DNA of 39,488 bases from Escherichia phage vB_Eco_ZCEC02: the sequence record PV833354.1; one strand, 5' to 3'. Below the pieces are notes generated by a model. The model was given only the letters and a program-made list of their open reading frames with translations. It ran no database searches and was not told the DNA's origin. The translations under genes and the position numbers were made by a program. Below, piece after piece: positions 23,445-24,289 of this stretch (position 1 is the stretch's first letter; each line of letters begins with the position of its first letter).

Positions 23445-23906
23445 ATGTATATTCGCAAGGCTACGGATGTAGACGTTTGGTACGCTGCTGCACAACTTAC
23501 AGATGACGACTTAGAGGAGTGTAAAGCCAACTATGGGACCACTGAAGGTCTCACTGAAAGGCTGCAAGCACACCTAACGTCTACATCTGTGGTTTTGACT
23601 AACTCTCTTGGAGAGATTTACGCCTATGGTGGCAACCAAGGTGACAACGTTTGGTTCCTGACGACCAGAATGACCGAGCGTCTCGCACCTGAAGGCAAGC
23701 GAGAGTTCCGTGAGAGAATCATGGAGTATCGTGACAAGATGCTGGAGGACTATCCGGTACTATGGAACTACGTCTGGGAAGGCAATACGTCCCACATCCG
23801 GTTTCTCAAGTCAATAGGCGCTAAGTTCCACGACGATAAGTGGACCAGAAGTCCAGTGACTGGAGAAGTATTCATTCTATTCACAATCACCAAGGAGGAC
23901 ACGTGA
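23445..23906 (+). CDS. 13: internal virion protein A-like (153 aa), by position
   Basis: Follows the phi13 promoter and precedes gp14; similarity to T7 gp13 not verified. Confidence 0.65.
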
Positions 23907-24289
23907 CTAAGGTCTGTACCGTCTGTAAAATTGAAAAGCCACTAGAAGCGTTCTCTCCACGGAAAGACTCTAAGTGTGGTGTACGCTCTGCCTGTAAGCT
24001 GTGTCATAACGGACGGAGCCACAAGAACAAGGGATACGAGAAGTATCACATTACGCAGATAGAATATGATTCCATCCTAAAAGAGCAGGGCGGGGTCTGC
24101 GCAATCTGCAAGACATTAGGAACTAGCCGAGGATTATGCGTTGACCACTGTCACACCTCCGGGAAAGTCCGAGGAATCCTATGTCATACCTGCAACCTAA
24201 AGCTGACCCGTAGAAACTACCACTCTACATGCGAAGATTTCGATGGTAAGGCTGCTGAGTATCTGGCTACAAGCCGGAAGGGGGATTAG
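23903..24289 (+). CDS. Endonuclease VII-family (Cys-rich) nuclease, putative homing endonuclease (128 aa); GTG start
   Basis: GGVCAICK...[21 protein letters not shown] matches the T4 Endo VII zinc-binding core (C.IC...HLDHDH..G.VRGLLC..CN); atypical codons; inserted between genes 13 and 14; track ORF 23840..24289 trimmed to the GTG at 23903 after AGGAGG. Confidence 0.75.

Follow-up and report, generated by a model that had tools for sequence, protein, structure and literature searches.

The window, by which we mean the whole 39,488-nt stretch of DNA analysed here, comes from a Kayfunavirus with ~97% identity to phages PSK1 and HC13. In the 1.6 kb surrounding the locus described below, identity to Escherichia phages PSK1, HC13 and MirsaeidiM_Esher2 is 97%, and this segment matches 221 phage records in total, almost all of them Kayfunavirus (K1F-like relatives of T7). 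Genes 13 and 14 of T7 are four bases apart, and there is, as the first-pass annotation of this DNA had stated, no gene between them. In the window, the two genes flank an open reading frame (ORF) of 128 codons, found exactly where that annotation had placed it (Table 1). The ORF begins with GTG at 23903-23905 and ends with TAG at 24287-24289, and the proposed overlap of its start with the stop codon of gene 13 is present as the four bases GTGA. Another in-frame GTG lies upstream at 23840; the start is placed at 23903 and not at 23840, because the relatives Penshu1, ST21 and L020 have ATG at the same position. Among relatives, gene 13 occurs as two alleles that are ~71% identical. The automatic annotation sets the start of the window gene 14 at the ATG at 24326.

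Table 1. Features of the gene 13/14 region of the window, and deletion remnants of the endonuclease gene in related phages
Feature	Position	Strand	Remarks
phi13, phage RNA polymerase promoter	23395..23413	+	Same sequence, without mismatch, as the phi13 annotated in EcoDS1
Gene 13, internal virion/scaffold protein	23445..23906	+	Pfam Phage_T7_Gp13, E=5.7e-36
Ribosome-binding site (RBS) AAGGAGGA	23892-23899	+	Judged from junction alignments, now serves the endonuclease gene; serves gene 14 in empty-site relatives
Endo VII-motif (DHHRN family) endonuclease gene, 128 aa	23903..24289	+	GTG start, TAG stop; PF02945, E=1.3e-16; F-CphI, 39% identity
Inserted cassette	23906..24295	+	Exactly 390 nt (130 codons), between ancestral gene 14 codons 1 and 2
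N-terminal Cys4 zinc-ribbon module (C5, C8, C31, C34)	23915..24004	+	Aligns with the first zinc motif of Hpy99I and the N-terminus of F-CphI
Catalytic beta-beta-alpha-metal core (C66, C69, C94, C97; D81, H82, H84, R90, N98)	24098..24196	+	Invariant columns; aligns to T4 Endo VII
New gene 14 RBS, AAGGGGG	24278..24284	+	Within the last endonuclease codons, 8 nt before ATT; present in all carriers
Gene 14, internal virion protein B	24293..24880	+	Proposed ATT start at 24293-24295; Pfam T7_gp14, E=2.7e-42
KM02 remnant	residues ~34-101 deleted		Cultured isolate
L033 remnant	residues ~10-91 deleted		Metagenome contig
ZG49 remnant	5' half deleted, with the end of gene 13		Cultured isolate

A scan from 23413 to 31064 for a further phage promoter gave no match, which leaves phi13 as the sole phage promoter upstream; genes 13, the endonuclease ORF and genes 14-16 are therefore expected to lie on one late transcript. 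The cassette was also searched for signals of its own. No terminator was found in it, and the search for a promoter returned one sigma-70-like match, which is at the level of chance.

The limits of the cassette were defined by comparing empty sites (in ST31, CHX131, ST20 and CR8) with occupied sites. The empty site of ST31 reads AAGGAGGACGT-ATG-TGT-GAA-CCA, in which ATG is the start codon of gene 14. On the left side of the occupied site, L020 reads AAGGAGGACGT-ATG-ACG-AAG..., in which ATG is the start codon of the endonuclease gene, and the corresponding end in the window is ...GACAC-GTG-ACT-AAG. On the right side, the occupied site reads ...GGAAGGGGGAT-TAG-GAA-ATT-TGC-GAA-CCA. These alignments establish the cassette as an exact, in-frame insertion of 390 nt after the start codon of gene 14, and the endonuclease ORF and gene 14 share one frame because 130 whole codons were inserted at that point. 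They also indicate that the RBS and start codon of gene 14 have been captured by the endonuclease gene. Conserved RNA structure was sought in the 3' module of the cassette, and just a 7-bp hairpin at 24262-24278 was found, with folding no better than that of shuffled sequences (z=+1.26).

The first-pass annotation had regarded the ORF as one of two mobile elements in this DNA, and the window does contain another nuclease gene of mobile type, an HNH_3 ORF at 7401-7835. A T7-type endonuclease I gene (Phage_endo_I, T7 gene 3 type, E=2.3e-75) is located at 7820-8272. Local tblastn detected no second Endo VII homologue in the window; HC13, unlike the window, has an Endo VII homologue in two places.

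The codons of the ORF had been described as atypical, and this description holds only in part. CTA is enriched (4 of 127 codons, or ~31 per 1000 versus ~6 per 1000), but the composition does not look foreign: the G+C content is 48.6% versus 50.0%, and the CAI-like index is 0.649 compared with 0.62-0.77 in core genes, both within the phage's own range. Codon usage and G+C content were accordingly rejected as a sign of foreign origin, CTA being the only codon clearly enriched. The composition of the ORF is almost fully adapted to the phage, which suggests that this lineage did not acquire it recently.

The encoded protein belongs to the Pfam Endonuclease_7 (DHHRN) family. The resemblance to Endo VII-type nucleases noticed in the first pass was substantiated by the Pfam Endonuclease_7 search, which gave 60.7 bits (cutoff 23.6), with a match that spans residues 46-104 and exceeds the curated gathering score. 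The PHROG 2633 'endonuclease VII' profile also matches (E=1.9e-26), as does the PADLOC type II restriction-enzyme model; the NCBIfam search returned only a sub-threshold retron-HNH match. In alignments of 43-46 homologues, C66, C69, D81, H82, H84, R90, L93, C94, C97 and N98 form invariant columns, and C5, C8, C31 and C34 are almost invariant. All of the catalytic and zinc-binding residues of the family are thus present, as two Cys4 zinc sites and the full D-H-x-H...R...N set. The second Cys4 site is composed of C66-x2-C69 upstream and C94-x2-C97 downstream of the motif, and D81, H82, H84, R90 and N98 align with D40, H41, H43, R54 and N62 of T4 Endo VII.

An AlphaFold2 model (pLDDT 87.5) predicts an N-terminal zinc ribbon and a linker, followed by a strand-strand-helix arrangement at residues 78-102 (strands 78-82 and 89-94, helix 95-102). 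The zinc ribbon is presumably the DNA-recognition part, that is, the sequence reader. Foldseek placed Hpy99I first (E=8.6e-5, probability 1.0) and T4 Endo VII next, with low global TM-scores (~0.3), so that the fold match is a local one. Hpy99I is also the best sequence match among solved structures (E=1.6e-4, residues 3-105 of the query versus 76-182), and T4 Endo VII aligns over only its residues 16-85 of 157 (E=0.022).

F-CphI, the product of ORF177 of cyanophage S-PM2, is the founding DHHRN, or Endo VII-motif, homing endonuclease, and the one with experimental proof: experiments have addressed where it cleaves, its need for Mg2+ and its catalytic residues, and mutagenesis showed that the DHHRN residues, after which the family was named, are needed (Fang et al. 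2018, PMC6083498). The F-CphI sequence was taken from the S-PM2 genome for alignment, and the window protein shows 39% identity to it over residues 1-105 (E=9e-19). The two proteins are similar in size (142 aa in F-CphI and 128 aa in the window) and share more than the motif, having all their parts in the same order, an N-terminal CxxC...CxxC zinc ribbon followed by a C-terminal CxxC-DHxH-R-CxxCN core. Both are encoded by free-standing phage genes located beside, not within, the associated gene. In contrast to F-CphI, the window gene has no intron partner, has virion genes of a T7-like coliphage on either side and is known here from its sequence. The Endo VII motif of the window protein, at residues 66-98 of 128, is in the C-terminal half, as in the F-CphI-like 'endonuclease clade'. 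For the podoviruses of that clade, a separate phage-encoded junction resolvase was used as a criterion, and EcoDS1 gp13.5, which comes from the same locus as the window gene, is included in Table S1 of that study with its motif C-terminal (PMC6083498).

Four Studiervirinae genes, namely EcoDS1 gp13.5, Ro45lw gp39, Klebsiella phage Adeo_44 and Yersinia phage Rambo_037, resemble the window gene in family, size and intergenic position, and in all four the 3' end of the nuclease gene holds the RBS of gene 14. They differ from it in that the proteins of these junction nucleases have only 40-44% identity to the window allele.

The empty-junction probe, taken from Salmonella phage ST20, matched 227 records. 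In ~90% of these relatives (~200 of 227), as in T7, genes 13 and 14 are adjacent with nothing between them; the comparison with insert-free relatives proposed in the first pass thus establishes that the ORF is not conserved throughout. In the ~10% of the 227 records in which the junction is occupied, at least three different Endo VII-type genes, only 40-44% identical to each other, are represented. The window allele is full length in ~10 records. The EcoDS1 gp13.5-type allele (44% protein identity to the window allele) is found in eight records, and the Ro45lw-type allele (40%) in Ro45lw and one metagenome contig. Close metagenome homologues, with 70-84% identity, are all situated between gene 13 and gene 14. 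The same junction also holds Endo VII genes in Przondovirus (Klebsiella phage Adeo) and Teseptimavirus (Yersinia phage Rambo).

Comparison with individual phages revealed that the ORF and its surroundings have discordant histories. The ORF is 98.4% identical to that of phage U8, while gene 13 is 71% and genes 12, 14 and 15 are 94-97% identical; conversely, the ORF is only 78.6% identical to that of Penshu1, whose flanking genes 12 and 15 are 93-95% identical to those of the window. With U8 the left breakpoint is at the RBS, and on the right side identity reaches 85 nt into gene 14. Identity to HC13 on the right of the ORF extends only 27 nt into gene 14, and the right breakpoints thus differ between phages. 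A copy with 70% identity occurs in a Caroctavirus (CR8-like) background; there, cassette-type sequence covers only ~18 nt of gene 14, about its first six codons, and is followed by CR8-type sequence. Divergence between alleles is deep (dS 1.5-2.5), far above that of the flanks, and dN/dS in full-length alleles is 0.04-0.10 across the whole ORF, which indicates that the protein is under selection. Three independent deletion remnants of the gene were found, in KM02, ZG49 and L033 (Table 1).

Homing endonuclease genes, such as the seg and mob genes of T4, have a life cycle of invasion, spread across backgrounds and decay. The presence and absence of the cassette, the diversity of its alleles, their discordant history, the remnants, the purifying selection and the similarity to F-CphI all fit a free-standing homing endonuclease gene. 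Module exchange by ordinary mosaic recombination is common in T7-like phages, and could be an alternative source of discordant histories without endonuclease-driven homing.

The first-pass annotation had proposed a free-standing homing endonuclease, and the comparative evidence supports this. We conclude that the ORF is probably an active, free-standing homing endonuclease gene of the DHHRN family, a selfish cassette residing at the gene 13/14 junction. Cleavage, the target site and homing itself we infer by analogy with F-CphI and Hpy99I. Late transcription from phi13 would express the gene along with genes 13-16. On co-infection with a cassette-free relative, the enzyme would, in a Mg2+-dependent reaction, nick the two strands in turn and so produce a double-strand break at a specific site; its target would be the intact junction (...AAGGAGGnnnnATGTGYGARCC...) or a position close to it. 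Recombinational repair off the carrier genome would then copy the cassette, along with a short and variable stretch of gene 14. The carrier itself would be immune, as the 390-nt insertion splits the junction and ATG becomes ATT. Such a cassette would be of low-harm design, its 3' end supplying gene 14 with a replacement RBS and an ATT start.

Strong purifying selection would equally be expected of a gene useful to the phage. The nuclease may be kept for the benefit of the phage and not be purely selfish, for example by cutting the genomes of related phages that compete with or superinfect the carrier (marker exclusion without net homing), or by attacking host DNA in a restriction-like, sequence-specific manner. 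Although the low dN/dS persists over deep divergence, the composition is adapted to the phage genome and the junction is occupied in several genera, we regard this explanation as unlikely, because ~90% of close relatives do without the gene and three independent deletions have inactivated it in sequenced phages (the KM02 and ZG49 isolates and the L033 contig). Restriction-like cutting is suggested by the PADLOC match and by the closest solved relative, Hpy99I (PDB 3FC3), a beta-beta-alpha-metal type II restriction endonuclease to which the window protein can be aligned at the two zinc motifs and at the active site. However, Hpy99I is a bacterial protein of ~190 aa that possesses an additional N-terminal domain and is paired with a methyltransferase, whereas the window protein is a phage protein of 128 aa; the neighbours of its gene are genes 13 and 14, with no methyltransferase beside it. 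In T7-like phages, moreover, host DNA is already degraded by gp3 and gp6.

A second alternative is that the protein acts in the manner of T4 Endo VII, resolving Holliday junctions or debranching DNA so that branched structures are removed before packaging. The Pfam family takes its name from the T4 recombination endonuclease VII, relatives are annotated in GenBank as 'recombination endonuclease VII', and the window protein has the same catalytic motif, with identical catalytic residues, and the same zinc site as T4 endonuclease VII (gp49). The architecture is nevertheless different. In T4 gp49 the motif occupies the N-terminal part and a helical C-terminal domain comes after it, whereas the window protein ends where that domain would start and carries an extra N-terminal zinc ribbon, which it has in common with F-CphI and Hpy99I. 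Two tests of family membership also went against a resolvase: the query ends at residue 128 and does not align with T4 gp49 over the whole length, as members of the resolvase clade do, and the ORF is missing from most Kayfunavirus records and from T7, which is not what would be expected of a phage group's own conserved resolvase. T4 gp49 is T4's own resolvase, whereas the window phage already has T7 endonuclease I. Podovirus proteins with a C-terminal motif fall outside the resolvase clade in Fang et al. (PMC6083498). Taken together, these differences make a resolvase very unlikely.

The cassette leaves gene 14 without its ancestral start codon, a point that the first-pass annotation had missed. 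In 15 of the 15 carriers examined, of both the window type and the Ro45lw type, TGC-GAA-CCA is preceded by ATT and never by ATG. By contrast, the EcoDS1-type, Adeo and Rambo cassettes keep the gene 14 ATG, although there too the gene 14 RBS is inside the last codons of the nuclease gene. The RBS of gene 14 in the Ro45lw version is a perfect AAGGAGG. This RBS module is >90% conserved between cassette types that are elsewhere ~56% identical, and it is retained in L019, though the endonuclease ORF there stops 12 nt earlier, as well as in all three deletion remnants. Of the sites that vary within the ten codons following ATT, four, one and eight lie in codon positions 1, 2 and 3, respectively; all replacements are conservative, and one serine codon changes from TCA to AGC. 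This conservation is not independent proof of translation from ATT, as recombination with ATG-bearing genomes may keep refreshing the stretch. The starts called for gene 14 differ among carriers, being placed at codon 9 in pO91, codon 12 in the window and codon 19 in Penshu1 and ST21. ATG-bearing cassettes were sought by pattern scans of IMG/VR and metagenome contigs, and only ZG49, Ro45lw and two contigs were recovered, all with ATT, plus chance matches, in a sample too small to prove that ATG never occurs.

Gene 14 of CR8 uses GTG, with mass-spectrometric support noted in the CR8 record, so that a non-ATG start is tolerated for this gene. In Escherichia coli, infC is a gene initiated at AUU. 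From these sequence comparisons we infer that ATT is used as a start codon, and on balance we favour AUU at 24293 as the start of gp14 in the carriers. It is possible, but as yet a tentative suggestion, that the cassette has replaced the start region of gene 14, an essential ejectosome gene, with gp14 now made from a rare AUU and an RBS located in the last codons of the endonuclease gene. If so, the 3' end of the cassette could not be removed by simple deletion and the element would have become entrenched; all three of the three remnants retain the 3' end. The change from ATG to ATT may then also shield the carriers from their own enzyme.

In a further alternative, the endonuclease gene is a decaying relic whose enzyme is inactive and whose ORF is kept only for the gene 14 RBS and start in its 3' end. 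Such a relic would account for the survival of the 3' module in every remnant and for its being better conserved between the A and Ro45lw types than the remainder of the gene, but it is highly improbable for the window copy, which is full length and has every catalytic and zinc residue intact, and the low dN/dS of full-length alleles extends over the whole ORF. It is hardly credible that the TAG is read through, with the resulting endonuclease-gp14 fusion built into the virion core and delivered to the next host on ejection. In all type A and Ro45lw-type carriers only TAG-GAA-ATT separates the ORF from gene 14, with no change of frame, and the two internal deletion remnants are in-frame, but the shared frame already follows from the 130-codon insertion, L019 has two in-frame stops (TAA, then TAG), a well-placed RBS precedes ATT, and the nuclease ORF of the EcoDS1-type, Adeo and Rambo alleles is in another frame than the gene 14 start or merely overlaps it. 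The in-frame state of the two internal remnants was also considered as a sign of translational coupling and was rejected, since its chance is 1 in 9 and not significant.

Genes nearly identical to the one in the window have already been deposited as 'endonuclease VII', including those of PSK1 (99.7% nucleotide identity) and Penshu1, and both the DHHRN family and its homing role have been published (PMC6083498). The EcoDS1-type gene is listed as an extra gene in a Hafnia phage paper, and the endonuclease ORFs of Ro45lw are only listed in a table of the Ro45lw paper. Our literature search for gp13.5 returned only a descriptive genome paper, and no paper on the 13/14 junction locus itself or on the ATT start was found.

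These findings leave the current understanding of phage biology unchanged, and the ATT start of gene 14 is a modest side observation. It has practical consequences nonetheless. With the probable AUU start, gene callers would be shortening gp14 by 8-18 residues in these phages, and clean removal of the 'accessory' nuclease gene during engineering could silence the essential gene 14. The name 'recombination endonuclease VII' is misleading for these small genes of T7-like phages, which are better described as DHHRN-type homing endonuclease genes. The 13/14 junction appears to be a recurrent landing site, used in at least three to four Studiervirinae genera by several deeply diverged alleles, and it may offer a handy natural system for the study of intron-less homing, competition between endonuclease lineages and gene decay in a tractable coliphage.

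The window begins elsewhere than at the physical left end of the genome: because the ocr gene lies close to its right end and the RNA polymerase gene close to its left end, we read it as a circularly permuted whole-genome copy of about 39.5 kb.

Coordinates of the features in the window and in related phages (handles of the comparison sequences in brackets)
Feature	Sequence	Position	Strand	Detail
RNA polymerase gene	Window	788-3469		
SSB gene	Window	6712-7404		
HNH_3 ORF	Window	7401-7835	+	144 aa, TTG start; Pfam HNH_3, E=8e-14
Endonuclease I gene	Window	7820-8272		
ORF between genes 11 and 12	Window	20774-21001	+	75 aa; DUF3850/ASCH, E=1.9e-19
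Region within gene 13	Window	23445-23890		
Hairpin	Window	24262-24278		UCUGGCU-ACA-AGCCGGA, 7 bp
ocr gene	Window	38291-38797		DNA mimic, E=5e-28
'Endonuclease' between genes 11.5 and 12	KM02 (L009)	296-736		
ORF between genes 15 and 16	U8 (L005)	6875-7324		150 aa
ORF between genes 15 and 16	Ro45lw (L011)	6434-6883		150 aa
ORF between genes 15 and 16	ST20 (L012)	6492-6941		150 aa
Region of the single deletion	ZG49 (L010)	3096-3700		

Gene 13, which precedes the Endo VII gene, occurs in Kayfunaviruses as two alleles only ~71% identical, in phages whose flanking genes 12 and 14 share ~94% identity. This dimorphism reaches exactly as far as the ribosome-binding site preceding the endonuclease gene or gene 14, and the cassette is both present and absent with each allele. 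In the deposited genome of an isolate, Escherichia phage ZG49, a single deletion takes out ~45 codons at the 3' end of gene 13 and, with them, the 5' half of the endonuclease gene, so that gp13 is truncated; either the C-terminus of gp13 is dispensable or the truncation is an assembly error. Directly 5' of the new ribosome-binding site of gene 14, every type of cassette preserves a hairpin by way of G-U or A-U changes; overall, the region showed no excess of structure relative to shuffled sequence (z=+1.26).

The first-pass annotation described the Endo VII gene as probably a second, independent mobile-element insertion; the first insertion so implied is presumably the HNH_3 ORF, located between the SSB and endonuclease I genes. 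With a G+C content of 44.6%, a CAI-like value of 0.519 and numerous AGA and TTA codons, this ORF is far more atypical in composition than the Endo VII gene. A further HNH gene, in Hafnia phage Ca, precedes the large terminase gene (PMC8861465).

Other small genes lie elsewhere in these genomes. The ORF between genes 11 and 12, annotated as 'RNA-binding protein' in EcoDS1, is kept in the relatives examined. The window lacks both the 'endonuclease' found between genes 11.5 and 12 in KM02 and the ORF found between genes 15 and 16 in three relatives, which in Ro45lw is itself annotated as 'endonuclease'. Kayfunavirus genomes contain several insertion hot spots for small variable genes.
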